12,065 bases of DNA from a virus (Duplodnaviria; Heunggongvirae; Uroviricota; Caudoviricetes). A program made the translations under genes and the position numbers. Within the stretch, counting starts at the first letter, position 1. Each line of letters opens with the position of its first letter. The stretch lies in the IMG/VR virus record IMGVR_UViG_2579778856_000001; one strand, written 5' to 3'. The notes under the pieces were generated by a model that saw nothing but the letters and a program-made list of their open reading frames with translations, made no database searches and was not told where the DNA came from. This document shows, piece after piece, positions 1 through 12,065 of this stretch.

Positions 1-165
1 CCTGAGCCATTTGAAAATAACATTATCATTGACGCCATTTTCACGTGCAATCTGTGCAACACAAGCTCCAGGTTGTGATGCCAGTTCCACCATACGAAGT
101 TTGAATTCATTCGAATAGTTTTTACGAGGTTCTTTTCGCCAGTCCTGTAATTCCATACTTAGATG
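1..165 (-). CDS. IS3-family transposase OrfA (HTH DNA-binding part), N-terminal ~55 codons; remainder lies beyond window start
   Basis: Reverse-complement of 1-165 translates from ATG (163-165) as MELQDWRKEPRKNYSNEFKLRMVELASQPGACVAQIARENGVNDNVIFKWLR. The pattern (F/Y)SxEFK...V(A/S)xIARExGVxxxxxxxW matches the OrfA helix-turn-helix of IS3-family elements (IS911, IS2 and IS3 OrfA are recalled from memory, not searched). Frame is open to the window edge. Confidence 0.55.
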
Positions 166-220
166 TCCGTCTATATCAGATGGGCGTCTAAGTTACCAAT
201 TCTCGTCTGATGGCTACATA
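1..220 (-). mobile_element. Left end of an IS3-family insertion sequence (partial; inner boundary approximate, around 215-235)
   Basis: IS3-family elements carry about 50-70 bp (including the terminal IR) upstream of orfA. Reverse-complement of 166-220 begins TGTAGCC..., consistent with the 5'-TG terminus typical of the family. Exact IR end not determinable without the right end. Confidence 0.4.
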
Positions 221-395
221 CGGCGGTCAGTTTACGCTTACGTCCCTTCTGGTCAAAATGGACGAAGAAATGCTCTGCTTCTTCGACAGCAACGGGCGAA
301 CCACCATGCCCCGTAAAGCTTTCTCCCTGCGTACTGGCGTAACCCGCCGCCAGCTGTTTCCAGACGCCATTTACTTCATTGAACGGGAGTTCTGA
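210..395 (+). pseudogene. Probable C-terminal remnant of the gene that preceded the radC-like gene, cut off by the IS insertion
   Basis: 61-codon ORF whose ATG lies at the predicted IS boundary. The frame only opens at 192 (TAA at 189-191). Its TGA (393-395) sits one base before the radC-like ATG (397), the tight coupling expected of the original operon partner. No recognisable domain. In CP4-type islands the gene upstream of radC-like is usually an antirestriction (KlcA/ArdB-like) or YeeR-like gene; that is inference only. Confidence 0.25.
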
Positions 396-396
396 C

Positions 397-849
397 ATGA
401 CCATGTTTACCCAGCGTGAAACCCGTATCCTTGACCAGGCGCGTGACATTATTAGCCGGTACTACCAGCGTGGGGTTCAACTCTGTTCCCCTGATGATGT
501 TCGACGGTGCGTGATGGTTGAGCTGGCACCGCTTGAACATGAAGAGTTTGGCATCATCCTACTCGATAATCATAATCAGCTGCTGCACCGCGAAATCCTG
601 TTCAGGGGTACGCTAAACTCGGTCAGCGTTCACCCCCGTGAAGTTATTAAGCGTGTGCTGAAACATAACGCCGCCGCCGTCATCCTTGTCCATAATCACC
701 CCAGCGGCGAGCCTGAACCCAGCCGGTGTGACATCCAGTTGACCAAAAAGCTTCAGGAGCTGCTGGAAATACTGGATGTGCGGTTACTTGATCACTTTAT
801 CGTGGCAGGAACTGAAACGGTGTCGATGGCTGAGCGAGGACTGGTGTGA
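397..849 (+). CDS. RadC-like JAB/JAMM-domain protein (DUF2466; YeeS/YfjY/YkfG-type of CP4 cryptic prophages)
   Basis: Translation MTMFTQRETRILDQARDI...HPREVIKRVLKHNAAAVILVHNHPSGEPEPSRCDIQLTKKL contains the complete JAMM signature H-x-H-x7-S-x2-D (HNHPSGEPEPSRCD) and the HPREV motif of the RadC family. The ORF track's TTG start at 379 is less likely than ATG 397 or 403. Confidence 0.85.
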   Translation: MTMFTQRETRILDQARDIISRYYQRGVQLCSPDDVRRCVMVELAPLEHEEFGIILLDNHNQLLHREILFRGTLNSVSVHPREVIKRVLKHNAAAVILVHNHPSGEPEPSRCDIQLTKKLQELLEILDVRLLDHFIVAGTETVSMAERGLV

Positions 850-895
850 TGCTGAAAGTTACTTGGTTTAATGTACGTTATTGCGGGTTACGCGC

Positions 896-1825
896 ATGAG
901 CAGGACAGCGTTGCGTCAGGTCGTGCCGGTGGTGCAAACCACCGTGTTCGATGCGTATATTGTCGGTCTGGCCCCCTCGGGACGGCGAGGTATCACCAGC
1001 CTGTTAAACCGCAGCGCCAGCATACTTAAACACGGTGCGGATGCAGCAGACTATCCGTGGGAACAACTTAACTACGCCGCCGTTGCCAAAGTGCGCGCGG
1101 CACTGCTGGATGACGGTTACGCCGTGTCATCGGTCAACATGGCGCTGTCAGCACTCCGGGGCGTAGCGCAGACGGCCTTTAACCTCAATTACATGGATGC
1201 CGAAACGCTGGCACGTATCCGGTCAGTTAAGCGCGTGAGCGGCGATGTCCAGCGCAAGGGAAGGGCGCTGGGCAGGCAGGAAATCCGGGTACTGATTCAG
1301 GCTGCAAAACAGCATCCGCAATCTGTACGGCGCTGTCGCGATGTCGCCATTGTGCTGATGCTTTGCGGAACGGGCCTGCGGGCCGGGGAACTGGTTAAAC
1401 TTGAGCGCCGGGACTATGACAACGGCATCCTGACGGTGAGGCAAGGGAAGGGGCGTAAATACCGTGAAATTCACGTGGCGGATGCGGTGGACAAGGCTAT
1501 TCGTGCGTGGCTGAAAGTTGGCGCAGACGAGGCTGACAGTGCGTTGTTTAGGCGAATTCAGCGCAGTGGTAAGGTCGCAAGCCAACCGCTGACTACGACC
1601 GGGTTAACGGGTATCCTGGCTGAGTTACAGCAAACGGCAGGTATAGCACGTTTTACCCCGCATGATATGCGGCGCACCTTCATCACCCGTTTGCTGGAGC
1701 AGGGCGTGGATATCAATACCGTCCGCCAGTTGGCAGGCCACAGCGACATATCCACGACGACGCGCTATGACTGTCGTGGTGATACTATGAAGATCAGTGC
1801 CAGCAAGCGCATCAGATGTTTTTAG
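896..1825 (+). CDS. Tyrosine site-specific recombinase / integrase (small, about 309 aa, XerD-like size)
   Basis: Catalytic-domain signatures are present: LRAGEL (Arg), GKGRKYREI (Lys), HDMRRTF (His-x-x-Arg), GHSDISTTTRY (His ... nucleophilic Tyr). ATG 896 preferred over the track's TTG 881. No N-terminal DUF4102/SAM-like extension typical of P4-type integrases. Confidence 0.85.
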   Translation: MSRTALRQVVPVVQTTVFDAYIVGLAPSGRRGITSLLNRSASILKHGADAADYPWEQLNYAAVAKVRAALLDDGYAVSSVNMALSALRGVAQTAFNLNYMDAETLARIRSVKRVSGDVQRKGRALGRQEIRVLIQAAKQHPQSVRRCRDVAIVLMLCGTGLRAGELVKLERRDYDNGILTVRQGKGRKYREIHVADAVDKAIRAWLKVGADEADSALFRRIQRSGKVASQPLTTTGLTGILAELQQTAGIARFTPHDMRRTFITRLLEQGVDINTVRQLAGHSDISTTTRYDCRGDTMKISASKRIRCF

Positions 1826-2426
1826 CAGTTGAGGCGTTGCCAGACTCGGTTTCAGTTTCATCTTCAGCACTCAACCGCGCGTACTTTTGATTCTGGATGT
1901 TAATTTGTGCATTGATATTTTCAGGCTGAAGCATCCACGCAACATCCTCACGCGCCCATTCTTTACCGTCAGAGAGTCGTTTTAACCGGGGTTTCCATAT
2001 TCCATACTCATTAAGTTTTTCTGCTACCGAAGCATATTTCTCACGATCTGACTCCCCCGTATGAAGCTTGTCAAAACGACCTTTTACAAGCTGGTAAACA
2101 GTATAGATTTCCAGTGCCTTAGGGGACCTGGCCGGGACTATCATGGGGTGTTCCTCCGGCCTATAAATCCCGTTTGGCTCTCCCTCATTGAGCAGGTCAT
2201 TAAACATGTGGTTCACGCAGGCACTCAGCACATCTGCCGCTTTCTCCGCAGCGAATTTATCCGGGCTAAAACCCGCTCCCGTCAGTTTCCGGGCAATCAG
2301 TGCCAGTTTTTGCCGGGTATCCCGTCCCAGATAAAGCTTCTTCTCCAGAAATTCAAAGACCTCGTTACTGCTTTTCCGTTCCCGGTGGCATCTGGCGTCA
2401 GCCTTGTTGCTTTGGTTACCAATCAT
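1812..2426 (-). CDS. Hypothetical protein (204 aa), convergent with the integrase and divergent from alpA; candidate island repressor or accessory gene (the position yfjH occupies in CP4-57)
   Basis: Long minus-strand ORF. The second ATG (2426) is preceded by GGAGGTGA with a 4-nt spacer (minus strand reads ATGGAGGTGACTATGATTGG). Predicted product MIGNQSNKADARCHRERKSSNEVFEFLEKKLYLGRD... is mostly helical and acidic at the C-terminus, with no domain I can name. Its 3' end overlaps the int stop by about 14 bp. Confidence 0.6.
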   Translation of the reverse strand: MIGNQSNKADARCHRERKSSNEVFEFLEKKLYLGRDTRQKLALIARKLTGAGFSPDKFAAEKAADVLSACVNHMFNDLLNEGEPNGIYRPEEHPMIVPARSPKALEIYTVYQLVKGRFDKLHTGESDREKYASVAEKLNEYGIWKPRLKRLSDGKEWAREDVAWMLQPENINAQINIQNQKYARLSAEDETETESGNASTAKNI

Positions 2427-2445
2427 AGTCACCTCCATGACAGTG

Positions 2446-2457
2446 TTTTGTACAAAA
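2446..2457. promoter_or_regulatory. Perfect 12-bp palindrome TTTTGTACAAAA, 20 bp upstream of the 204-aa gene start, in the divergent int-side/alpA-side control region
   Basis: Read directly: ...cagtgTTTTGTACAAAAtatcacc... is self-complementary over 12 bp. It sits in the 5' leader/promoter of the minus-strand gene, so it is a candidate operator. Confidence 0.35.
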
Positions 2458-2648
2458 TATCACCATTGAGCCTCAGTGAAAATTGCTTCTTTATATGACC
2501 GTTCTGGAGACAGAAATAGATGATCTCGAATGACATCCACATTAAAGATGCCCTTAACGTGCTCAACGAAGGCATCGTTGAGTGAATCCTTGCGTTTTTT
2601 GGTGGTTGTAAATAACCCGCTCCTGAAACAGCTCAAAGGAGCACAAGC

Positions 2649-2846
2649 ATGAACACCAACCGTATTTTGCGTAAAAAAGAGGTACTTCATCTGACGGGGA
2701 ACTCGTCAGCGACGTTGTACCGACTCATCTCGAAAGGATTCTTTCCTTTGTCAAAGAGGCTAACGGGCGACAATGGCCGGGCGGTAGGCTGGCTGGAGAG
2801 TGATATCAATAACTGGGTTAACAGCCGTATGCAGGCGGGAGAATGA
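2649..2846 (+). CDS. alpA: AlpA-family phage transcriptional regulator (MerR-like HTH; P4 Vis / CP4-57 AlpA type)
   Basis: 65 aa: MNTNRILRKKEVLHLTGNSSATLYRLISKGFFPLSKRLTGDNGRAVGWLESDINNWVNSRMQ. Shows the canonical AlpA pattern (L/I)R.xEV..LTG.S.sTiYRli..G.FP....L....VGW.esei..W. AGGAGC lies 7 nt upstream of the ATG. Confidence 0.85.
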   Translation: MNTNRILRKKEVLHLTGNSSATLYRLISKGFFPLSKRLTGDNGRAVGWLESDINNWVNSRMQAGE

Positions 2847-2847
2847 A

Positions 2848-3315
2848 ATGAAAGAGATAAAATCGAAAACCAGTTCTGCGAAAAAAACGCTGGTTCCTTG
2901 GTTCGAAACTATGGGGAAACAGGTTGGTTTATCACAAGAAACGATATCAGCAGTGTTAAAGGAGCAGCGTTTACGGATACGTAAGCTTAACTACGCATCT
3001 GCATATACAGTGTCCAATATTCTCATACAGGATTGCGGCGGGGCCGATGACATGTGGAGCAACTACGCTAAACTGGCGCTTATCCTTGAGCGTTGTAAAT
3101 ACATTCCCTGCGGGAGCAGGGCCTGTGCATATTGTTCTACCGCTCAGCAATTACATTATCAGGGGGTGGATGTAACCGGGGAATACGCTTTATATCAGTT
3201 GCCTGAGTTATTTTTAGATTTTTTAGAAACAAACGACAAAAATTCCTCTTATCATTGGGATTACAATAAGTTAGTTGAGCGGCATGAAGATGCTCAGGCG
3301 AGGTCATTCGGGTAA
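2848..3315 (+). CDS. Hypothetical protein (155 aa), translationally coupled to alpA; Cys-rich patch CKYIPCGSRACAYC
   Basis: ATG 2848 lies 1 nt after the alpA TGA (GAATGAAATGAAA), with GGGAGAA upstream. The track's 2800 start is an in-frame upstream ATG inside alpA and is less likely. The C-x4-C-x4-C-x2-C cluster suggests a possible metal site. No family recognised. Confidence 0.6.
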   Translation: MKEIKSKTSSAKKTLVPWFETMGKQVGLSQETISAVLKEQRLRIRKLNYASAYTVSNILIQDCGGADDMWSNYAKLALILERCKYIPCGSRACAYCSTAQQLHYQGVDVTGEYALYQLPELFLDFLETNDKNSSYHWDYNKLVERHEDAQARSFG

Positions 3316-3347
3316 TAGCCATTTCTGTATGGTGAAAAACTGACATA

Positions 3348-3380
3348 TTACCCTGCCACTGCATTTTGGTGGCAGGGTAA
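3348..3380 (+). promoter_or_regulatory. Perfect 12-bp stem / 9-nt loop hairpin (TTACCCTGCCAC-TGCATTTTG-GTGGCAGGGTAA) between the 155-aa and 284-aa genes; no U-tract
   Basis: Read directly from sequence. There is no T-run after the stem, so it is not a classical intrinsic terminator. The loop plus stem carry CCACTGCATTTT, a 12-mer repeated in the iteron cluster at 4335-4346. Confidence 0.4.
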
Positions 3381-3402
3381 TCAATACAGCTAGGAATATT
3401 AA

Positions 3403-4257
3403 ATGAACGATTCTTATTACTTCAGAACATCTGACCCGGATTACATTCGTCACGCACCGTCAATGCTTGAGATTTTAAGTAAAGCATTCCCCACTATTAT
3501 TACCCAGCAGGAAAGTGAGTATGAACTGCAGCGTCTTAACCATTTACTAAATAAACTGAAAGGCAGCAATCGCTGCTACAACATCATTGCTCAAAAACTA
3601 AGGCAGTGCAGAAACGGATCTCCATGCAACAGTCTTATATGCCCGCATTGCCAGCGGGAACGCATTCTGGCGCAACTGGCTATGTTGCATGTCTTGCCGG
3701 GGAATTCAGCAGAATACGTGGGAGTGGTCCTGTTTTTCAACAAGGATACGCAAACTCCGCCGCCATGGAAGAACATTGGGGCGCTCAGGGCGCAAATCGG
3801 TCGTTATAAGCAGAGGATAAGCCGGGTACTTAACCGCCTGGGGTACGCCGGTCCGGCCACAGGCACCTTCAGTATGATGCGACATATGCCTGATGGCCCA
3901 GAAGAGCGTATTTTCTGGGTTCCACAGTTGTGTTTGTTCCTGCCCAATGACAGTACGTTGATTAAGGGGCTAAAAGCGCATATGTCGCGAAGTGGTGGGG
4001 CATTCATTGATGCATCGACGCTTAACACACCAGTGATCGTGCTCAGGTATAAAGATCCCGCGAGACTGATTTCATGCGCCCTGAATCCAGTCTGGCACAC
4101 AGCAGATTACACACTGACTGATAAAGACGCTCTTGTTAAGTCAAGAATGGAGCTACTGAAAGGCCGGACACTGTTAAAAAGTCTGCTTACCCTGGACTCA
4201 CTCGGAACAGGTGTCGTTTCTTTTTCGTTTGGGCAACCCCCAGGGAAAGTGCACTGA
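3403..4257 (+). CDS. Hypothetical protein (284 aa) with cysteine cluster RQCRNGSPCNSLICPHCQRER; candidate replication/DNA-binding component of the alpA operon
   Basis: ATG 3403 preceded by AGGAATATTAA. Continuous 284-codon ORF in the same orientation as alpA. C-x5-C-x4-C-x2-C resembles a zinc-ribbon. No confident family assignment. Confidence 0.65.
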   Translation: MNDSYYFRTSDPDYIRHAPSMLEILSKAFPTIITQQESEYELQRLNHLLNKLKGSNRCYNIIAQKLRQCRNGSPCNSLICPHCQRERILAQLAMLHVLPGNSAEYVGVVLFFNKDTQTPPPWKNIGALRAQIGRYKQRISRVLNRLGYAGPATGTFSMMRHMPDGPEERIFWVPQLCLFLPNDSTLIKGLKAHMSRSGGAFIDASTLNTPVIVLRYKDPARLISCALNPVWHTADYTLTDKDALVKSRMELLKGRTLLKSLLTLDSLGTGVVSFSFGQPPGKVH

Positions 4258-4272
4258 TTTACCGGTAATGCA

Positions 4273-4404
4273 GCAACTGCAATGCACTTTTGCTGTTGAT
4301 TAAATTGCAGTGGAACGACGAATAACAGCGGCAACCACTGCATTTTCGTTGTTGTAAAACTGCAAAGCTTGCCAGTGATTTTGATGGCGCTGATGCACTT
4401 TAAC
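4273..4404. repeat. Iteron-like direct and inverted repeat cluster (candidate replication origin or regulator binding array)
   Basis: GCAACTGCAATGCACTTTTGCTGTTG (4273-4298), an inverted copy AATTGCAGTGG (4303-4313), GCAACCACTGCATTTTCGTTGTTG (4331-4354), AACTGCAAAG (4358-4367), TGATGCACTTTAAC (4391-4404). Core (A/C)ACTGCA(A/T)T recurs five times. A/T-rich TTTAAC patches follow. Confidence 0.45.
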
Positions 4405-4833
4405 ATTCCAACTGTCTCGATTTTAACGCAACCGTCTGTTTTCTGCAGGGGCTCACGGATGCCTCTGCACACCCGATCCTTACCATCAACTGACGAGTTA
4501 GCGCATCTGTGAGGGCTTTCTGTGTTTCTGTCAGTGAATATTCTACACACAATGGGGGGAGCGGTCAGCGAGCACCATTGCCATTGAGCGCAACGGAGAG
4601 CTTGGGGACATGCAGCACTACGGAGGCTTCATCTCCTTCTCATGTCATTAAACGATACGGCGAACGAGCGCAGCGAGTGAGGGAAGGCGTCAGCCTGAAC
4701 AGGGGGAAAGATTTGCGACCGGAGTGGAGCAAATCATGGGCGGAGCCCATCCTCGCGACTGGGGTTTTGACTTTCGAATTGCCCAGCGTTGAGTTTGGTT
4801 AATGTAGTGAGACGAGGATGCTGAGAGGGGACC

Positions 4834-6231
4834 GTGAGTACTGAAAAGGATTATCCAGTGAAGATCCCTAAGTGGGTTTATGACCGTATTACTGAAATAA
4901 CGGATTATGTCGTGGGGGATACGCAATGGGCTGTTACCCGGCGGCAGACAGTACGGTGGTTCCTGGCTCACATATGGCTGGAAACAGACGATGATGGCTG
5001 GACTATATGCACTGTCCGGGATATCCGTAGCAGCTATGCCAGTCTCCTGGGACAGTGTGAAATTAGTTACCAGGGGGAGTGCTTTATGTCCACGCTAACT
5101 GATTTCCTGCCGACACTTTCGGATATTGAATTTCGTGCAGGAAAAGCGAGCAAAGACCCGGAAAAGCGTAGAGCCAGTGCATGGCGGTTCAACCCCCTGC
5201 TGCCTGTGTGTGATGAGTCTGCCAGGGGTAAGTTAAATCTGGTTGACTTGGATACTGGTGAGTCTGTTAGTTTTAGAGCTCTGCTTCAGGGGAACGGGAA
5301 AGCTCCTGGGCATGCGATAGATGTAGAGAAACGCCAGACGGCCCTAAAACAAACGGAAAAGGACTTCTTGGCCAAAGTTGGGCGGGGGCGCATGAGTATA
5401 CAGTTTGTGAAGGAATTGCGTAGCCGTGAGCCGGATCACTATTACCGCGCAGGAATACGCAGCCTTAACCATCTCTACAATGGCAGGATTGAGGGACAAT
5501 ATGTCACTTACGACCATCATTATCGTCTGACGTTTGGAGGGCGGTATTATGATCAAGCTTTCCAGAATCTGCCCAATGAGTTCAAAGCTAAATTTCGGAC
5601 CGGGTTACTCAACTATGACATCGAAGCGTGCAATCTGGCCTGTCTGAACCATCTGTTCAGACAGTATGACGTCGATTATCGTGTGAAGTCATCGATATAT
5701 AAAACCATGATGGAACATACCGGGCTGACCCGTAAACAGTGCAAACAGATGGTCCATACCACCACCTACAGAATTGGGCGTGTGACTATTGGTGTTAATG
5801 ATGGCCTTGGGGCAAAAGTGTATGGATGGTGCGGTAACAGCAAAAAAAAGGCGCTAAAGATTTTGCGTTGGTGGAACCGTTATATCAGTCCATTGAAATC
5901 TGCGCTTGAGTCATTGCTGGAACGTGTGCATGGCGCACACCGCAAGAGTTGTTCATCACCGCGTAACTATCACAGGTACGCTAATGAAGTCGGATTAATA
6001 CTGGATCTTAATAGTGAGGTGTATCAGCGTGAAAAGACTCACCATCATCAATATGCGCGGAATAAGGCACTGTTGGCGTTTATGATCTGTGGTGTGGAGC
6101 AGGCGTATATCCGTGAGGTTGTCAGTATGAACCCTGGTCGTGTCTGCATGCTGGATCATGATGGGGTAGTGGCAACGGGCGCGCTTTCACTACCGGACTG
6201 GCGTGGTTTCACGATGAAAGTGAAGGACTAG
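4834..6231 (+). CDS. Hypothetical protein (465 aa) occupying the position of yfjI in CP4-57; carries motifs reminiscent of right-hand (PolA/T7-like) polymerase motifs A, B and C
   Basis: GTG 4834 is the first start after the in-frame TGA at 4822, with GAGAGGGG 3 nt upstream. Motif-like segments: LLNYDIEACNLACLNHL (aa 258-274), RKQCKQMVHTTTYRIG (aa 300-315, R-x3-K-x7-Y) and MLDHDG (aa 439-444). Spacings of about 42 and 139 aa are similar to Klenow's D705 / K758 / D882. Whether this is a real polymerase fold is unverified. Confidence 0.7.
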   Translation: MSTEKDYPVKIPKWVYDRITEITDYVVGDTQWAVTRRQTVRWFLAHIWLETDDDGWTICTVRDIRSSYASLLGQCEISYQGECFMSTLTDFLPTLSDIEFRAGKASKDPEKRRASAWRFNPLLPVCDESARGKLNLVDLDTGESVSFRALLQGNGKAPGHAIDVEKRQTALKQTEKDFLAKVGRGRMSIQFVKELRSREPDHYYRAGIRSLNHLYNGRIEGQYVTYDHHYRLTFGGRYYDQAFQNLPNEFKAKFRTGLLNYDIEACNLACLNHLFRQYDVDYRVKSSIYKTMMEHTGLTRKQCKQMVHTTTYRIGRVTIGVNDGLGAKVYGWCGNSKKKALKILRWWNRYISPLKSALESLLERVHGAHRKSCSSPRNYHRYANEVGLILDLNSEVYQREKTHHHQYARNKALLAFMICGVEQAYIREVVSMNPGRVCMLDHDGVVATGALSLPDWRGFTMKVKD

Positions 6232-6298
6232 CTTACTTTCTTGAATTTAACTATCTGCGATCTCTGATAAGGGCGTATTACGTTGTCAATCATAATGG

Positions 6299-6328
6299 GA
6301 TATGCGCATTGGAACGATGTGCATATCC
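6299..6328. repeat. Imperfect 12-bp inverted repeat GGATATGCGCAT-ggaacg-ATGTGCATATCC between the 465-aa gene and the IS30-like end
   Basis: Read directly: 11 of 12 bp complementary, 6-nt spacer, no flanking T-run. Could be a weak terminator, a protein-binding site or part of an eroded att/recombination site. Confidence 0.35.
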
Positions 6329-6355
6329 AGTAAGTGATCCATGTCCGCTTTGAGC

Positions 6356-7050
6356 TGTGAGTTCAACGGGTCGATGCAACGCTGTCCCTAATCAAGGGGG
6401 ACGTTGCCATGAAACGAAGAACTCGTATTAACTACACGCCAGAGCAAAAGGTGATTATTTGGGACAGATATAAGCAAGGTGATTCCCTGCATGATATCCC
6501 CCAGAATGTTCGACAGATTTCACTCTACTATCATGCCTACAATCCACCAGGCCGGTGGCTACCGTCCTCCCGTGCGAAAGCGGCACCGGTTAGCGTTTTC
6601 GCTTGATGAAAAAGAGGAGATATCCAGAGGACTGGTAGCAAAACGCATCATCAGGGACATCGCTGCTAAATTATCAATAGCTCCCTCAACGATTAGCCGC
6701 GAGATCAGGAGGCACGGCGGTGCAAAACAATACCGTGCAGCAAAAGCCGATCCTGCTGCGTGGGAAAATGCTCTGAGACCAAAACCTTGCAAGCTAATTG
6801 AAAGCCCCACATTGTGTAAAATCATTGCAGAGAAGATGCATCAGGACTGGTCGCCGGAACAAATTGGCGGTTGGCTAAAACGCTGTTATCCCGATAATCA
6901 GGAAATGCATGTGTCACATGAAATGATTTATAAAACGCTTTTTATACCAACCCGGGGAGCTTTAAAAAAAGAGCTGCAGCAATGCCTCAGAAGCGGAAGA
7001 GTAGTGCGTAGATCCAAAACCTCATCACTTAAAGTAAACAGAGATACATT
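6356..7050 (+). mobile_element. IS30-family insertion sequence remnant (left IR plus the 5' two-thirds of the transposase gene; 3' end deleted)
   Basis: 6356-6380 TGTGAGTTCAACGGGTCGATGCAAC resembles the IS30 left terminal IR (TGTAGATTCAATTGGTCAACGCAAC, from memory). The transposase start lies about 53 bp inside, as in IS30. Homology to the IS30 transposase stops near aa ...KVNRDT (about 7048), well before the DDE domain. Confidence 0.7.
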
Positions 7051-7090
7051 CTGGTCACGAATGCCCGGTTGTTCGTGCTTTGCGTTTTAA
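6409..7090 (+). pseudogene. IS30-family transposase, frameshifted (in the C5 run near 6500-6505) and C-terminally truncated
   Basis: Frame 1 (6409..) MKRRTRINYTPEQKVIIWDRYKQGDSLHDI matches the IS30 N-terminus pattern MRRTFTAEEKASVFELWKNGTGFSEI. Frame 2 (from about 6489) ...RMFDRFHSTIMPTIHQAGGYRPPVRKRHRLAFSLDEKEEISRGL...WSPEQIGGWLKR...YKTLF... matches the IS30 HTH region (...ERKRAVAHLTLSEREEIRAGL...WSPEQISGWLRR...YKTLY). The switch between frames occurs at atcCCCCCag. The last about 13 codons (FWSRMPGCSCFAF) are non-homologous read-through. Confidence 0.75.
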
Positions 7091-7227
7091 TCGCATTTTA
7101 CAGTTTCTGCCTGCGTGCAGAGGTTGATGGTATTTTCTGAAAAAGCGGCTCGCTTTGCTAATGCATATGGCACAAATACAACAGTTTGTGTCATTCTGAC
7201 CCATCTTTATACCGCGACGGTGGAAAC

Positions 7228-9798
7228 ATGGATGAGCTGCTAACCCTTGGCTGCATTGCTTTATTCTTCGCACTGGTGGTGGTTCCCATCCTCGCGATTA
7301 TCGCGCTCAGCCGCAGCACGGCTGTTCGTTCTGAGCTGGCGACCCTGCGTCGCCGGGTGGAGGTGCTTGAGCAGCGCGGTGTGACTGAAGCACCCGCCAC
7401 AGTGGTAACAACTGTGCCGCAGAGTGTTTCGCAGATGGTTGTGCCTGTTGAAACGTCTTCGCCTGCGGTTAACATCGTGCTGTCGGAGCCTGTGGCTGAT
7501 GTCACGCCTGAGTCCGTTGACCCCTGGCGTCCACAACCGAAGCCGCAAAACGAGGCGCTACCCACACCAGCGGTCGAACAATCTTCCGCTTTTGGTGGGG
7601 TGATGTCGTCCCTGGTGCGCTGGTTTATGCAGGGCAACCCGCTGGCAAAGCTGGGTATTCTGCTTCTCTTCCTTGGCTTCTCCTTCCTGCTGCGTTATAC
7701 GGTTGAACACTCCCTGTTCCCGCTTGAGCTACGTCTGGTGGCGACTTCGCTGTTTGCGATTGCCCTGCTGGTAGTGGGCTGGCGATTGCGGCATAAACAG
7801 CTGGTTTATGCGCTGATCATACAGGGTGGAGCTACGGGGACGCTCTATCTCACCGTTTTTGGCGCATTCTGGCTCTGGCAGATGCTGCCGATGACGCTGG
7901 CGTTTGCATTACTGGTGGCGATTTGCGCGGCGAGCGTGGGACTGGCGATTATGCAAAAAGCGCTCAGCCTCGCGATGCTGGCAAGTATCGGTGGCTATCT
8001 GGCACCGCTGTTGCTTTCCACCGGCGGCGGTAGTCATGTGGCGCTCTTCTCTTTCTACCTTCTGCTTTCCGTCGGTATTCTCGCCATCAGCATCTGGCAA
8101 CACTGGCGCGAGCTTAATCTGCTTGGCCTGTTATTTACCTTTGGTATCGGCGGTCTTTGGGGACTCGACGGCTATCGATCAGAGTATTACCTGAGCAGTC
8201 AGCTTTTCCTGATAGCCAATACGATCATTTTTGGTGTGCTGAGCGTGGCGCTATCGCTACGAGCACAGGAGAAAGGTAAGCAGATTATTGATGGCGTGCT
8301 GTTGTTTGCATCGCCGCTGGTCGGTTTTGGCATGCAGTACGCCATAACCCGGCATATGGAATATGGTCCGGCGCTTAGCGCGCTGGGTTACGGCGGTTTC
8401 TATCTGGCGTTAGCATGGCTTGCATTGCGTCGCTATCCCTCTTTGGGGAGGCCGCTGGTGCTGGCGGCGCTGGCGCTGGGTGGGGCATTTACCACGCTCG
8501 CTATCCCACTGGCGCTTTCGGCCCGCTGGACGGCGATGGCCTGGGCGCTGGAAGGTCTCGGCATCCTCTGGCTGGGCGTGCAACAGCAGCAGCGGCGTAT
8601 GAGCTATAGCGGCACTGCGCTGCTGGTGCTGGCAGTGTGCAGCGCGCTGTGGGCGCAGATGAACGGGATGAGCGCGCTTTCTCTGGTGCTAATCTTTGCC
8701 GTACTCAGCCTCAGCTGGCTGGCTGCCGCCTGGCTGTGGCGCAATATTCAGTTGCAGGGTAGTTGGGTTCTGTTGGCTGGCGGTTTGATCTTCTGGATAA
8801 TCGCGCTCATTGGGGCATCGCAACTGGTGCTGAAAAAGGACTCGCTGGTGCTGTCTGGCGTGCTGGCGTTAATGGCGATATCGGTCTGGGGCTGGCGGAT
8901 TGTCTCTGGTCGTCTGGCCTGGTGGGAGCTGGATGTCAGCAAATGGTTGCTGTGGCCGACGATGCTGGTGATGCTGCTGTCTCAAATTTCACAACATGAG
9001 ATTTTTGCTGCGGGCTGGCAGAATCTGGCCTGGTGTCTGGCGTTACCCGCTGCGGGGGCATTGCTCTGGCGTGATGCTGAGACGTTGCCGCCGCGCCTCT
9101 CCAGACTGGCGCACCTTTCACTCTTCTGGATGATTCTGCTCGCGCTGGCGGCGGAGCTATTCTGGTTTGCGCAAGATCTGCCATGGGGCATGGCGGCGTG
9201 GGGCTCCGGCCTGATGATGGCCGCGGGGGGCCTGCTCATCTTTCTCGTTCATGAGGCGGTTCATCGTCAGCTATGGCCATTCCGAAGCTGGCCCGCACTC
9301 TACGCTTCTCAGGCGATGATACCGGTAGCTGCGGTATTGGTTGTTCTGCTAGTACTGACGAATTTGCAGGATGGCGTAGTTTATCGCCAGACCTGGCTGC
9401 CGCTGGTGAATCCACTGGAGGAGGGGGCCGCTTTTGCGCTACTGGGACTCATTGTATTTTATCGCGTTTCGCAGCGCTTTTTCCCGGTGCAGATTTCGGT
9501 ATGCCGTCCCTGGCCGCTCATTGCACTGCTGGCGCTTAGCTTCTGGTGGCTGAATGGCATCCTGCTGCGCGCATTGGCCTGGTACGGCGAAGTGCCCTGG
9601 AGCGCGGAAACACTGTGGCATTCGCGGCTGATTCAGACCTGTTTTGCCCTGTTCTGGATGCTGGCGGCATTAGTGGTGATGCTACGTGCGACCCGGCGTT
9701 GCTCACGTCGCGAATGGCTTTGTGGATCCGTATTGTTAGGGATTGTTATTGTGAAACTGATGTTGGTAGACAGTGCGCGTGGCGGCGGCCTGGCATGA
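7228..9798 (+). CDS. Large polytopic inner-membrane protein (856 aa). Architecture: N-terminal TM + coiled-coil + Pro-rich linker + more than 20 TM helices, as in DUF2339-family proteins. Probably chromosomal backbone
   Basis: ATG 7228 is preceded by GGTGGAAAC. The track's 7186 start lacks an RBS. Uninterrupted 870-codon frame. Very hydrophobic, L/A/W-rich repeats of predicted TM segments. Visibly higher GC than the flanking island genes. Family call is from recalled architecture only. Confidence 0.75.
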   Translation: MDELLTLGCIALFFALVVVPILAIIALSRSTAVRSELATLRRRVEVLEQRGVTEAPATVVTTVPQSVSQMVVPVETSSPAVNIVLSEPVADVTPESVDPWRPQPKPQNEALPTPAVEQSSAFGGVMSSLVRWFMQGNPLAKLGILLLFLGFSFLLRYTVEHSLFPLELRLVATSLFAIALLVVGWRLRHKQLVYALIIQGGATGTLYLTVFGAFWLWQMLPMTLAFALLVAICAASVGLAIMQKALSLAMLASIGGYLAPLLLSTGGGSHVALFSFYLLLSVGILAISIWQHWRELNLLGLLFTFGIGGLWGLDGYRSEYYLSSQLFLIANTIIFGVLSVALSLRAQEKGKQIIDGVLLFASPLVGFGMQYAITRHMEYGPALSALGYGGFYLALAWLALRRYPSLGRPLVLAALALGGAFTTLAIPLALSARWTAMAWALEGLGILWLGVQQQQRRMSYSGTALLVLAVCSALWAQMNGMSALSLVLIFAVLSLSWLAAAWLWRNIQLQGSWVLLAGGLIFWIIALIGASQLVLKKDSLVLSGVLALMAISVWGWRIVSGRLAWWELDVSKWLLWPTMLVMLLSQISQHEIFAAGWQNLAWCLALPAAGALLWRDAETLPPRLSRLAHLSLFWMILLALAAELFWFAQDLPWGMAAWGSGLMMAAGGLLIFLVHEAVHRQLWPFRSWPALYASQAMIPVAAVLVVLLVLTNLQDGVVYRQTWLPLVNPLEEGAAFALLGLIVFYRVSQRFFPVQISVCRPWPLIALLALSFWWLNGILLRALAWYGEVPWSAETLWHSRLIQTCFALFWMLAALVVMLRATRRCSRREWLCGSVLLGIVIVKLMLVDSARGGGLA

Positions 9799-9918
9799 TC
9801 AGACATGAGATAAATGAAGGGGGATCCGTGAGATAAATAACGAATTGGAGTGGGTTAACATGGGTTCTGGTGAACAGAACTGAAATTCTTTTCCGCTATA
9901 CGATAGATAAGTCGGGCA

Positions 9919-9948
9919 TTGAAATCATCCTTCCTGGCAACTTAGAAT
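9919..9948 (+). promoter_or_regulatory. Sigma70-like promoter TTGAAA-17 bp-TAGAAT upstream of the 53-aa ORF
   Basis: Read directly: TTGAAA (9919-9924), 17-nt spacer, TAGAAT (9943-9948). Predicted TSS about 9955, leaving a roughly 37-nt leader to ATG 9992. Confidence 0.4.
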
Positions 9949-9991
9949 CGAGTTTGCTGAAACATGACCCGCAACAAAAAGGATGATTCCA

Positions 9992-10153
9992 ATGACTACT
10001 CAAAACAATAAGCATGATAGCCTGGATTACTCAGAAAAGCCCAAAAGCAAGCACATCGTGACGTTCGAGCGCGATTCCGGTAGAAAAGGAGAATCGTCTT
10101 CCTCTGCCAATAAAACCACTATGCCGGCAGCCCCTGCCCCAGGGAAAAAATAA
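9992..10153 (+). CDS. Small hydrophilic protein (53 aa; MTTQNNKHDSLDYSEKPKSKHIVTFERDSGRKGESSSSANKTTMPAAPAPGKK); not in the supplied ORF track (below its length cut-off)
   Basis: ATG 9992 has AAGGA 8 nt upstream and the promoter above. K/S-rich, no TM, predicted disordered. Stop TAA 10151-10153 lies 3 nt from the stop of the convergent membrane gene. Confidence 0.4.
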   Translation: MTTQNNKHDSLDYSEKPKSKHIVTFERDSGRKGESSSSANKTTMPAAPAPGKK

Positions 10154-10156
10154 ACA

Positions 10157-10789
10157 TCATTCATCGTTCGTTGCACGAACGCGCCTGATCTCCACTCTGG
10201 CAATCTGATCTGCTGGAATATAGGTTGCCAGAGCTCCCCAGTACTTATCAACCACGCCTTTATACTCTTCCCATTCGTTACTGCCTGAAGGGCTGCTGTG
10301 CGTGACGTAAAGAACCATATCGCCTTTATTCCCCAGGGTAAACGGACCGTTAGGCCACTCTTCAAAGTTCCCTGGCAGCCGTGACATCATACCGGAACCA
10401 TCGCGAAGAATCACTCTGACCTCGGTAACGCTGAAGCCTGTTTGATCAAACATTGCCTGCCATGCTGAGCTGGTATCGTCAGACCATGAAATATCATTAT
10501 TCCACAGTAATCTGTACATCCATTTGCGACCGTACCTGCGCCACCACGCACCGCATGTAAGGGCACACAGAAGTGCTGGTGGTGTTGCCAGCCAGGCATT
10601 CAGACCTGCCCACATAACAGCCTGGTAAGCCATCATTGCTGTCAGGCCAAAAATCAGCGAAGAAAAAGTCACCTCAATGGGCTTGTGGTGATCCTTCAGT
10701 CCCACATTCGCAATAAAATACCCAATATAGCCACTGGTCAGGGTCACCAGTGTTGCCCATGGCAGATTTAACAACGAAACGTCAAACAT
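10157..10789 (-). CDS. Hypothetical membrane protein (210 aa): three N-terminal TM helices plus about 120-aa soluble C-terminal domain
   Basis: Start ATG 10789 (MFDVSLLNLPWATLVTL...) is preceded by GGGAGAAAAT. The track's longer start (10867) would run through the mor terminator hairpin and is rejected. TM segments approximately at aa 8-30, 38-62 and 68-83. The C-terminal domain ...GNKGDMVLYVTHSSPSGSNEWEEYKGVVDKYWGALATYIPADQIARVEIRRV is of unknown family. Confidence 0.65.
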   Translation of the reverse strand: MFDVSLLNLPWATLVTLTSGYIGYFIANVGLKDHHKPIEVTFSSLIFGLTAMMAYQAVMWAGLNAWLATPPALLCALTCGAWWRRYGRKWMYRLLWNNDISWSDDTSSAWQAMFDQTGFSVTEVRVILRDGSGMMSRLPGNFEEWPNGPFTLGNKGDMVLYVTHSSPSGSNEWEEYKGVVDKYWGALATYIPADQIARVEIRRVRATNDE

Positions 10790-10824
10790 ATTTTCTCCCT
10801 GCATCCTGAATACTAAAGAGAGAG

Positions 10825-10866
10825 CATAAAAAAAGCACGGTAAGGGGTCTACCGTGCTTTTATACA
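10825..10866 (-). terminator. Rho-independent terminator of the gemA-mor transcript (hairpin AAAGCACGGTA-AGGGGTC-TACCGTGCTTT; T7 run on the minus strand); partly bidirectional
   Basis: 11-bp perfect stem 10832-10842 / 10850-10860, 7-nt loop. The minus strand continues TTTTTTTAT (complement of 10825-10831). The plus strand continues TTTTATAC. It lies 38 bp downstream of the mor stop. Confidence 0.65.
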
Positions 10867-10903
10867 ATAAGGAGATTTTTGAAAGGACTTTAACAAGCAG
10901 GAA

Positions 10904-11302
10904 TTATCTGGATTTGTTAACGTCTTTCGTCTCCTCTGGCAGATCTTCATCAAACAACCTGCCCTGCATCCGATCCAGTTCTTCTTTTCTGACCCGCTTA
11001 ACCACGCTGTAGACCCACTGAAGCGAAACACCAAACTTGCGGGCCAGTTCGTGGTGGTTGCGTCCGTTAAACTCCCTGAAGATTTCCCGGTCGCGCTGAC
11101 TGACCTTCCATACCATGCCCATCGGGAAATAAACGTTTTGCCCGCCCCAGACCTGCATCATTCGGTTCGCGACGGCCTGACCAATCTGGTCGGCAACTTC
11201 GGGCTCAATATCAATAATCTCGCGAACGGTCTCAGAGGTATGCTGTGCCAGTTCCACCAGGAGTTCCGGCCCCTTACTTCGAAACTGATTCAGGTCGCTC
11301 AT
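10904..11302 (-). CDS. mor: Mor-family transcriptional activator (phage Mu middle-operon regulator / C family), 132 aa
   Basis: MSDLNQFRSKGPELLVELAQHT...VYFPMGMVWKVSQRDREIFREFNGRNHHELARKFGVSLQWVYSVVKRVRKEE. The RDxxIxxxFNGxNxxELAxK(F/Y)G(V/L)Sxxx(V/I)Y C-terminal HTH is characteristic of the Mor/C family. RBS GGAGTCAAAC-ATG. Overlaps the gemA-like 3' end by 29 bp. Confidence 0.75.
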   Translation of the reverse strand: MSDLNQFRSKGPELLVELAQHTSETVREIIDIEPEVADQIGQAVANRMMQVWGGQNVYFPMGMVWKVSQRDREIFREFNGRNHHELARKFGVSLQWVYSVVKRVRKEELDRMQGRLFDEDLPEETKDVNKSR

Positions 11303-11726
11303 GTTTGACTCCCGCAGCTCTGCGCTGCCACTTCTTCAGTTTCTCAATAACACTGCTTGCCTGTTCAGTACTGAGCCAGCGCAGGGCGCTGATGCCCGTT
11401 TCCCGCTTGATCCACCGCGCTAATGCATTTTCTGAACGGTCACGAACAATGCCGGCAGCAGCCATTTCAAGCCATAGCGCACGGATTTTCCTGGACTGCG
11501 GATGGTTATCCAGCGGTAAACCGGAGCTGGCTTTTCCGGCAGGCTTAACGCGAAAGCCTTTCCTTTTCATGGATTCCAGCACGCAGTTTAGTTGTGTGGT
11601 ATCCATTCCTTTGGTTGAGGCTTTACCGGTCAGCCCCTGTAACATCTGGCGGTAGGTGTCTTCATCCATACCCAGTTCATTACGGGCAATATGAATGAGC
11701 TGGATAAGACGTTGTTTAGTCATCAT
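11274..11726 (-). CDS. gemA: Mu gp16/GemA-like protein (DUF1018 family), 150 aa
   Basis: From the ATGATG at 11726, with AGGAG 5 nt upstream: MMTKQRLIQLIHIARNELGMDEDTYRQMLQGLTGKASTKGMDTTQLNCVLESMKRKGF... The N-terminal motif is typical of Mu-like gp16/GemA proteins, as is the location immediately upstream of and overlapping mor. The track's earlier start (11765) is in frame but lacks an RBS. Confidence 0.7.
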   Translation of the reverse strand: MMTKQRLIQLIHIARNELGMDEDTYRQMLQGLTGKASTKGMDTTQLNCVLESMKRKGFRVKPAGKASSGLPLDNHPQSRKIRALWLEMAAAGIVRDRSENALARWIKRETGISALRWLSTEQASSVIEKLKKWQRRAAGVKHERPESVSK

Positions 11727-12065
11727 CGTTGCTCCTTTTACCTGCGCCACCGATATAATCGACATATAAAGGAAGCGCCACAGGCCAGCACAGGAACATC
11801 ACCGACCAGCTAATCCAGTAGCCAGCACCACTGTAACGTGAATAAAACCCTGAACGGCGGTGCAGTTCAGCAGTACACCAACCGACAAAACAATACCAGA
11901 ACAGGGCACATACAACAGATTCAGCCGTCATTCTGAATATCCCCCCAACTGATATGAATATTACGGGCAGCAATGACAGGGTCGTTATTCCACCATGCAC
12001 CTGACATGTATTTTTCAACCTGTTCGCGTCCGGCAATAACACCAATTGTGATCCCCGGCCTGACG
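11716..12065 (-). CDS. Hypothetical small membrane protein, partial (frame open to the window end); its 3' end overlaps the gemA-like start
   Basis: Minus-strand frame is open from the window edge (12065) to TAA at 11716-11718. Predicted product has two hydrophobic segments (LSLLPVIFISVGGIF, VVCALFWYCFVGWCTA) and an acidic tail. The internal TTG/GTG start at 12045/12042 is uncertain. Confidence 0.4.
   Translation of the reverse strand, partial: SGRGSQLVLLPDANRLKNTCQVHGGITTLSLLPVIFISVGGIFRMTAESVVCALFWYCFVGWCTAELHRRSGFYSRYSGAGYWISWSVMFLCWPVALPLYVDYIGGAGKRSNDDD

Follow-up and report, generated by a model that had tools for sequence, protein, structure and literature searches.

Which factor keeps AlpA off in the alpA-type elements of Gram-negative bacteria, where it has not been identified (PMC6092414), and how are the “integrase only” defence islands without known mobility, common in Escherichia coli, controlled, which is not understood either (PMC10121019)? 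These questions are raised by a 12,065-nt stretch of DNA (hereafter the window; IMG/VR record IMGVR_UViG_2579778856_000001, filed under Caudoviricetes), in which alpA stands divergent from orf204, a gene whose 204-amino-acid (aa) product belongs, as judged by profile searches, to no known family. We establish here the gene, its protein family and structural model, its synteny, the distribution of a 9-bp intergenic palindrome and a hairpin over the alpA ribosome-binding site, and we infer DNA binding by the Orf204 protein, its promoter assignment, the repression of alpA and any inducing signal. Our tentative reading, to which we give slightly less than an even chance, is that orf204 encodes a DNA-binding autorepressor of new fold, gating the alpA operon of a pipolin-like island devoid of piPolB.

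orf204 and its position opposite alpA

The features that carry the argument are the following, in window coordinates.

1812-2426, minus strand: orf204, encoding a 204-aa all-alpha protein of an orphan family (ATG at 2426, the RefSeq start)
2432-2436, minus strand: GGAGG, Shine-Dalgarno (SD) sequence of orf204, 5 nt upstream of its ATG, read from the sequence
2446-2457: perfect 12-bp palindrome TTTTGTACAAAA, 19 nt from the orf204 ATG
2454-2462, minus strand: TGaTATTTT, putative extended -10 element of the orf204 promoter
2467-2475: TGAG-N-CTCA (TGAGCCTCA), 9-bp palindrome and candidate operator, conserved in the intergenic alignment
2649-2846, plus strand: alpA, 65 aa, leading the divergent operon (PF05930 Phage_AlpA, E = 2.6e-12; PHROG excisionase/transcriptional regulator)

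The local order is radC (plus), a XerC/XerD-like tyrosine recombinase gene (plus), orf204 (minus), a 222-bp intergenic region, alpA (plus) and genes for proteins of 155, 284 and 465 aa. A preliminary description of this DNA had pointed to a 204-aa gene convergent with the upstream recombinase and encoding a helical protein without obvious helix-turn-helix (HTH) family, and on each of these points it was borne out. The full open reading frame (ORF) spans 1812-2438 on the minus strand, and we take the 204-aa start as right because GGAGG lies 5 nt upstream (its plus-strand CTCC being conserved in all close lineages), RefSeq uses this start, and the other possible ATG (2438) lacks conservation, being lost in Erwinia. 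The 3' end of orf204 overlaps the recombinase gene by 14 bp (1812-1825), making the two a convergent pair; convergent transcription across this opposite-strand overlap could couple both genes wherever the recombinase is present.

No Pfam, NCBIfam, PHROG or PADLOC model matched Orf204 above threshold. A word-indexed search returned close Enterobacterales homologues only, and an exhaustive profile search over 1.84 billion representatives yielded 32 proteins of the family, most full-length members measuring ~190-220 aa and sharing three conserved blocks. A second profile search (5.8 billion proteins), completed by cluster look-ups, gave no annotated remote homologue, all matches being “hypothetical protein” without Pfam family, from Salmonella, Serratia, Edwardsiella, Klebsiella, Yersinia, Providencia, Proteus and other hosts. 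The AlphaFold2 model, computed from a 33-sequence alignment, is all-alpha with seven helices and confident (predicted local distance difference test 86, predicted TM-score 0.82), and no structural neighbours of it were found. Residues 8-23 form a basic helix, and family members have a median isoelectric point of ~9. Orf204 is predicted to be a sequence-specific DNA-binding regulator of an undescribed all-alpha fold. Two other identities were discarded: membership in the “Recombinase” domain of large serine recombinases, for which the PF07508 match (aa 131-185, E = 0.0056) reaches 17.4 bits against a gathering threshold of 21.1, is seen in 4 of 33 family members and is accompanied by weak similarity to serine-integrase recombinase domains; and a bZIP-like N-terminal helix (N-x3-A-x3-R), whose asparagine is not conserved in the family.

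Homologous loci were compared at close range in seven genera (E. coli, Cedecea, Lonsdalea, Superficieibacter, Kosakonia, Erwinia and Pectobacterium) and at long range for seven family members of 22-40% identity (Serratia, Providencia, Salmonella and metagenomes), one more remote member from Salmonella/E. coli (P0031) being left out of the fetched loci. The orf204-like gene is divergent from the AlpA gene in 13 of the 14 loci, across 181-245 bp of intergenic sequence and down to 22% protein identity; the lone exception (L024) has no alpA and looks like a remnant. This family-wide synteny, obtained by the homologue and neighbourhood check that had been recommended at the outset, supports the slot opposite alpA as a real, conserved regulatory position. 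The slot had been called an “int/alpA switch position”, of which the alpA half stands and the int half does not: the recombinase is missing from the homologous islands of Pectobacterium, Providencia (L012) and Salmonella (L015), and the island integrase lies elsewhere. These absences make the XerC-like recombinase an optional module that may serve as a multimer resolvase, rather than “the int” of the switch.

Candidate operator, alpA leader and proposed switch

Across the seven close lineages the block CA(C/T)CATTGAG-N-CTCA (2461-2475) varies only at its third base and at the central N, which may be C, G, T or A, the arms of TGAG-N-CTCA being fixed; fixed arms around a varying centre are as expected for a palindrome bound by a dimer. 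The motif occurs once in the window (0.23 copies expected) and in 15 of the 21 fetched loci, nearly every copy falling in the orf204-alpA intergenic region, and the ~4 matches found outside intergenic regions in ~300 kb correspond to the expected rate. In 12 of 14 loci its nearest copy stands 21-43 nt before the orf204-like ATG, next to a conserved TGnTATTTT, with one to three copies per intergenic region, and the motif is kept even beside orf204-like proteins that are 22-26% identical. Copies and their distances from the orf204-like start are as follows.

L015: three copies, at 30, 77 and 124
L020: two copies, at 34 and 91
L022: two copies, at 22 and 109
L023: two copies, at 24 and 44
L017: one copy, at 44
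L019: one copy, the variant ATGAGGCGTCAT, at ~34

Read in the orientation of orf204, the motif is followed by a 4-nt gap and then by the TG of the extended -10, so that, relative to the orf204 promoter, it would occupy about -28 to -20. TGnTATTTT, TGnCATTTT or, in Kosakonia, TGnTAAAAT stands at this place in all seven close lineages, and the -35 is not conserved. A consensus scan of 1700-2900 found neither canonical sigma-70 promoters (-35/-10 pairs) nor intrinsic terminators, and Rfam returned nothing meaningful over the same interval. A 76-aa ORF spanning the intergenic region (2460-2690, minus strand) was rejected, since stops or a frameshift interrupt it in Cedecea, Lonsdalea, Kosakonia and Pectobacterium.

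The site comes in subtypes that bear on the identity of its binder. AlpA and Orf204 mostly diverge together, and one pair of loci, L020 and L023, sets them apart. L020 carries GTGAG-N-CTCAC (G-type) and L023 TTGAG-N-CTCAA (T-type), despite AlpA proteins that are 88% identical. The N-terminal helix of the orf204-like protein reads N-T/S-x-x-K/Q-R in G-type lineages and A-x-x-H-R in T-type lineages, as it does in L019, whose ATGAGGCGTCAT falls outside the T/G scheme, so that the flanking base appears to follow this basic helix and not AlpA. The orf204-like proteins of L020 and L023 are 27% identical; since their AlpA neighbours are 88% identical, alpA and the orf204-like gene are, on these figures, exchanged by recombination, with a breakpoint in or near the intergenic region. 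The L020/L023 contrast, the tracking of flank by helix and the motif-free alpA region of the E. coli K-12 element CP4-57 favour Orf204 as the binder of TGAG-N-CTCA, without proving it.

On the other side of the intergenic region, the alpA leader holds three further features.

2562-2582: second inverted repeat, CTCAACGA-N5-TCGTTGAG, with 8-bp arms, a 10-bp stem in the RNA fold
2608-2613, plus strand: GTAAAT box, 4-6 nt 5' of the alpA hairpin, invariant in nine aligned lineages and absent from L022 and L023
2619-2642, plus strand: hairpin over the alpA SD, GCTCCT (2619-2624), 12-nt loop, AGGAGC (2637-2642)

The hairpin, lying ahead of the alpA ATG at 2649, had been recognised in the preliminary description as an inverted repeat over the ribosome-binding site, and its structure is conserved. 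When the stretch between the GTAAAT box and the start codon was folded, this hairpin was the minimum free energy structure of each lineage folded, with energies of -9.6 to -11.9 kcal/mol, the window copy having -9.6 kcal/mol and z = -2.2. Its arms elsewhere read TGCTCCTT/AAGGAGCA, AACTCC/GGAGTT and GTGTTCC/GGAACAC, and in L022 and L023 ATCTTCT/AGGAGAT and GGCTCC/GGAGTC, respectively. Covariation support is modest but consistent: 87% of cells are paired against 34-53% in slid-partner controls and two pairs are changed on both sides, a count that is an undercount, one lineage having been misaligned by MAFFT. The conserved hairpin is predicted to sequester the alpA SD. Across the seven genera there is hardly any variation in the ~40 bp preceding the alpA ATG, and the GTAAAT box would make a poor sigma-70 -10 element. 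The second inverted repeat is identical in E. coli, Cedecea, Superficieibacter and Pectobacterium and degenerate in Lonsdalea, Erwinia and Kosakonia; it holds TTGAG half-sites in an orientation opposite to that of the operator, a T6 run (2595-2600) lies 12 nt past it, and a T-run occurs at a comparable distance from alpA in nearly all lineages. This repeat could be an attenuator.

We propose that Orf204, probably as a dimer, would bind (T/G)TGAG-N-CTCA(A/C) through its N-terminal basic helix (aa 8-23). Because of the position of the site within the orf204 promoter, its occupancy at 2467-2475 would shut off orf204 transcription, a negative autoregulation giving a steady protein level. The protein would also hold silent, while the island is integrated, the operon formed by alpA, two or three further genes and a probable replication protein, and as a second lock the hairpin in the 5' untranslated region would pair the alpA SD, leaving stray transcripts poorly translated. 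Upon loss or inactivation of Orf204, AlpA would accumulate and, AlpA-family proteins being auto-activators or excisionases, excision and replication of the island would start. A bolder version, in which Orf204 founds a new structural class of master repressor, the counterpart of Stl in alpA-type Gram-negative elements, inactivated by a phage or stress signal that licenses AlpA-driven excision and replication, we consider unlikely. If Orf204 binds DNA, a new DNA-binding fold would be added to those known, and the locus supplies a candidate repressor, a candidate 9-bp operator with natural T- and G-type variants and a putative second, translational lock on alpA.

Several observations weigh against this autorepressor reading. 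The Providencia clade (L012) has an orf204-like protein and is the only one in which TGAG-N-CTCA was not found. The single E. coli site lies 174 bp from the alpA ATG, so that direct steric repression of alpA is not evident, no second degenerate copy occurs near alpA at up to two mismatches, and the consensus scan of 1700-2900 did not place the alpA promoter. The correlation between helix and flank covers seven lineages, among which the L020/L023 contrast is one natural experiment. Orf204 has no recognisable HTH domain (Pfam HTH_3 and related), and a ribbon-helix-helix identity (Arc/MetJ/CopG/RepB-CopB), which calls for an N-terminal beta-strand, then two helices joined by a short G-x-S/T/N turn, and for a Pfam RHH or RepB match, was rejected, the monomer model not bearing it out and no such match being found. 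The island is partly decayed in this strain (IS66 insertion, frameshifts), and its excision and replication are putative. Finally, AlpA or a host factor could be the binder of the palindrome.

This last point leads to an alternative that we hold to be rather unlikely, in which AlpA or a host factor binds TGAG-N-CTCA and production of AlpA turns off orf204, a regulated passenger whose accessory product might act against phages, against defence systems or in the control of replication. In the phage-inducible chromosomal islands (PICIs) of E. coli, DNA binding and auto-activation by AlpA are proven (PMC6092414), AlpA accompanies the motif in every motif-bearing lineage, and Orf204 has no recognisable DNA-binding domain; yet AlpA proteins that are 88% identical stand beside different operator subtypes, the subtype tracks the N-terminal helix of Orf204, and the motif is missing from the CP4-57 alpA region. 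Acidic insertions or tails in some family members, such as DDGWDDDWDDDWDDE, resemble DNA mimics and would suit a passenger, as would the accessory genes that sit between int and the regulator in Staphylococcus aureus pathogenicity islands (SaPIs; PMC6092414). However, no PADLOC or PHROG match was obtained for Orf204, and the divergent layout is strictly kept over ~20-100% identity, unlike swappable cargo, which varies between loci. The suggestion of an accessory defence gene parked at the switch likewise gained no support, PADLOC giving no match.

More improbable, in our view, is that Orf204 acts in origin binding, in partition or as an accessory of recombination, working with the XerC-like recombinase or a replication protein, and that the palindromes are iterons or an accessory site of the excised circle. 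The regular spacing of the palindromes (47 + 47 bp in L015, 57 bp in L020, 20 bp in L023), the weak matches to PF07508 and serine-integrase recombinase domains, and the adjacency and 3' overlap of orf204 with a tyrosine recombinase gene point in this direction; against it, several orf204-bearing lineages lack the recombinase, the PF07508 match is below threshold, E. coli has a single site, and this site overlaps the promoter region of orf204 itself, as is typical of operators. A smaller chance still is left to the idea put forward in the preliminary description, that the 204-aa protein controls the switch through TTTTGTACAAAA. This perfect palindrome does lie ~20 bp upstream of orf204, overlapping its likely -10 and start site, and Cedecea and a second E. 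coli lineage keep it and even lengthen it to 14 bp. However, the window holds two perfect 12-bp palindromes where dinucleotide shuffles give 3.2, which is chance level (for at least one in the 222-bp intergenic region, P ~0.05), and conservation in homologous elements, set beforehand as a test that could refute the idea, is lacking: TTTTGTACAAAA is intact only in E. coli, including its second lineage, and Cedecea, decays elsewhere to ATCTGTACAAAA, TTTTGTTCAAAA or TGTTGTTGAAAA and is gone in Kosakonia, the left arm not being conserved in Lonsdalea, Superficieibacter, Erwinia, Pectobacterium and Kosakonia despite 57-89% protein identity. Cross-genus conservation is confined to its right half (the AAAATA region), which the -10 element explains. 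As placed here, TTTTGTACAAAA would run across the 3' portion of the putative -10 and the probable start of orf204 transcription, and because its conserved half is probably the tail of the extended -10, we read it as a chance feature of particular lineages, superimposed on the core promoter. The positional inference of a regulator was reasonable, the operator call was wrong, and the function of the protein is what we infer.

Downstream genes and the island

The remaining genes of the window that bear on the nature of the island are listed below.

397-849, plus strand: radC (PF04002, E = 7e-46)
896-1825, plus strand: XerC/XerD-like tyrosine recombinase, 309 aa (PF00589, E = 1e-31), 3' of radC and convergent with orf204
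2848-3315, plus strand: 155-aa gene, no family
3403-4257, plus strand: 284-aa gene, no family
4834-6231 (RefSeq: 5086-6231), plus strand: 465-aa gene, no family, last of the alpA operon
10157-10867, minus strand: 236-aa ORF among Mu-like genes
10904-11302, minus strand: Mor, Mu-like
11274-11765, minus strand: GemA, Mu-like

The 465-aa protein gave nothing in sequence and profile searches against PDB and Pfam. It contains motifs resembling those of family-A DNA polymerases in the right order (GRxx..FQNLP, NYDIEA..L, RKQCKxxxxxxxYRIG and HDG), of which NYDI and HDG are invariant in eight homologues at 20-22% identity; hhalign aligns exactly these motifs with the C-terminus of E. coli PolA, at a probability of only 0.5%. 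Its slot corresponds to the position of piPolB in pipolins and to DUF927 in other lineages. In the relatives, alpA is followed by a gene for a 245-379-aa protein and then by one for a 476-561-aa protein, with DUF927 in two lineages (L012 and L023). Beyond these genes the cargo is of defence types, e.g. type I restriction-modification, AbiE, GmrSD and AAA_15, and varies from locus to locus, and the opposite flank carries RadC, DUF2787, small HTH genes, FtsK-gamma genes and a terminal P4/SXT-type integrase, which adjoins mutS in Erwinia and Salmonella.

Over positions 1-9795, the window matches E. coli MNCRE44 and many further clinical E. coli chromosomes at 100% identity. In MNCRE44-type chromosomes the island is a mosaic bounded by dhaR and ychF, with a retron-Ec67-type reverse transcriptase, an ABC-three-component system and insertion sequence (IS) elements, and its integrase is a separate P4/SXT-type enzyme (Arm-DNA-bind_3) adjoining ychF at the island end. 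Of 5426 complete E. coli genomes, 594 (~11%) contain it, clinical strains of the ST131 type among them. A phage or plasmid origin was rejected, no phage record having matched and just two very large E. coli “plasmid” records. The second E. coli lineage of the island (L026, strain WP4-S18-ESBL-09) shares 96.7% identity across orf204 and the intergenic region and differs in its flanks, which encode a 1727-aa ATP-binding protein, a large HTH protein and a DEAD/DEAH helicase, with an Xre-type HTH in place of the 162-aa protein found in MNCRE44.

At the left end of the window, a 92-aa ORF (171-449, minus strand) is antisense to, and overlaps, the start of radC; it is found at 68-91% identity in five other genera, is annotated in RefSeq in a shorter version and has an IS66 element directly upstream in this strain. 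Between the alpA operon and the DUF2339 and DUF3999 genes lies what is left of a transposase (6409-7090, plus strand), frameshifted and with an HTH_38 domain, and the original cargo end of the island has probably been lost or rearranged in this strain. The window diverges from MNCRE44 at 9795/9796, beyond which Mu-like genes lie on the minus strand; the 9796-12065 segment looks like a transposable-phage remnant or an insertion truncating the DUF2339 gene.

Comparison with known systems

In SaPIs and Gram-positive PICIs, the repressor genes stl and rpr are divergent from the excision/replication operon (PMC6092414). The orf204 locus resembles them by its divergent gene, found in 13 of 14 loci, by control sites within the intergenic region, a candidate palindrome standing beside the promoter as for Xre/CI/Stl-type repressors, and by a protein expected to silence the integrated island. 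It departs from them in that Stl and Rpr have an N-terminal Xre-type HTH whereas Orf204 has no detectable HTH family and no fold neighbour, the operon is led by AlpA and not by Str/Xis, no packaging genes were found here and no helper phage is known. The preliminary description had generalised from PICIs that the gene opposite alpA is the master repressor, which is true of the Gram-positive stl/rpr elements only (PMC6092414); in Gram-negative alpA-type PICIs it is unclear whether there is a global repressor, and AlpA is a helper-induced auto-activator (PMC6092414), driving excision and replication in the EcCICFT073 type (PMC6092414). With EcCICFT073 the island shares a rightward operon led by an AlpA of the PF05930 family; it differs by its greater size and by the defence cargo found on either side in its relatives. 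PHROG recognised no pri-rep, terS or capsid genes in the operon, and packaging or capsid-redirecting genes (terS, rpp, morphogenesis) had no PHROG match there and no Pfam match among the neighbouring genes of the relatives; because no recognisable packaging genes are present, the island is not shown to be a satellite.

Closer at hand are the pipolins, bimodular defence islands with piPolB, for which ychF is among the integration sites (PMC11551731), and which combine an SXT/P4-type end integrase, a second tyrosine recombinase followed by an excisionase, DUF2787, orphan core genes and variable defence cargo (PMC11551731). The present island shares this core, with an integrase beside ychF, DUF2787 and a Xer-like recombinase followed by AlpA. 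Unlike pipolins, it has no piPolB, a 465-499-aa protein or DUF927 occupying the slot, and Pfam gave no PolB-type family among the proteins of the window or the genes called in the fetched loci. This island most resembles pipolins, minus their hallmark piPolB, and islands of a pipolin-like, piPolB-less kind are mentioned merely as possible in the pipolin study (PMC11551731).

CP4-57 (L021, 2660-6895) offers a similar layout, with intA rightward, yfjH leftward, and alpA and yfjI rightward. Its components differ: hhalign shows no homology between YfjH (318 aa) and Orf204 (probability 0.1%), YfjI bears no similarity to the 465-aa protein, and just 43 bp, devoid of TGAG-N-CTCA, separate yfjH from alpA. 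From this layout, the gene opposite alpA may be a general slot, convergently filled. In Pseudomonas aeruginosa, a repressor gene divergent from alpA, alpR, controls alpA expression, AlpR being a LexA/CI-like repressor with an HTH and an S24 peptidase domain, neither of which is present in Orf204. Stl/Rpr and AlpR-AlpA thus provide precedent for a repressor gene divergent from an excision/replication operon or from alpA, and the orf204 arrangement would, by analogy, work as stl or rpr opposite xis-rep and alpR opposite alpA, through proteins of different families.

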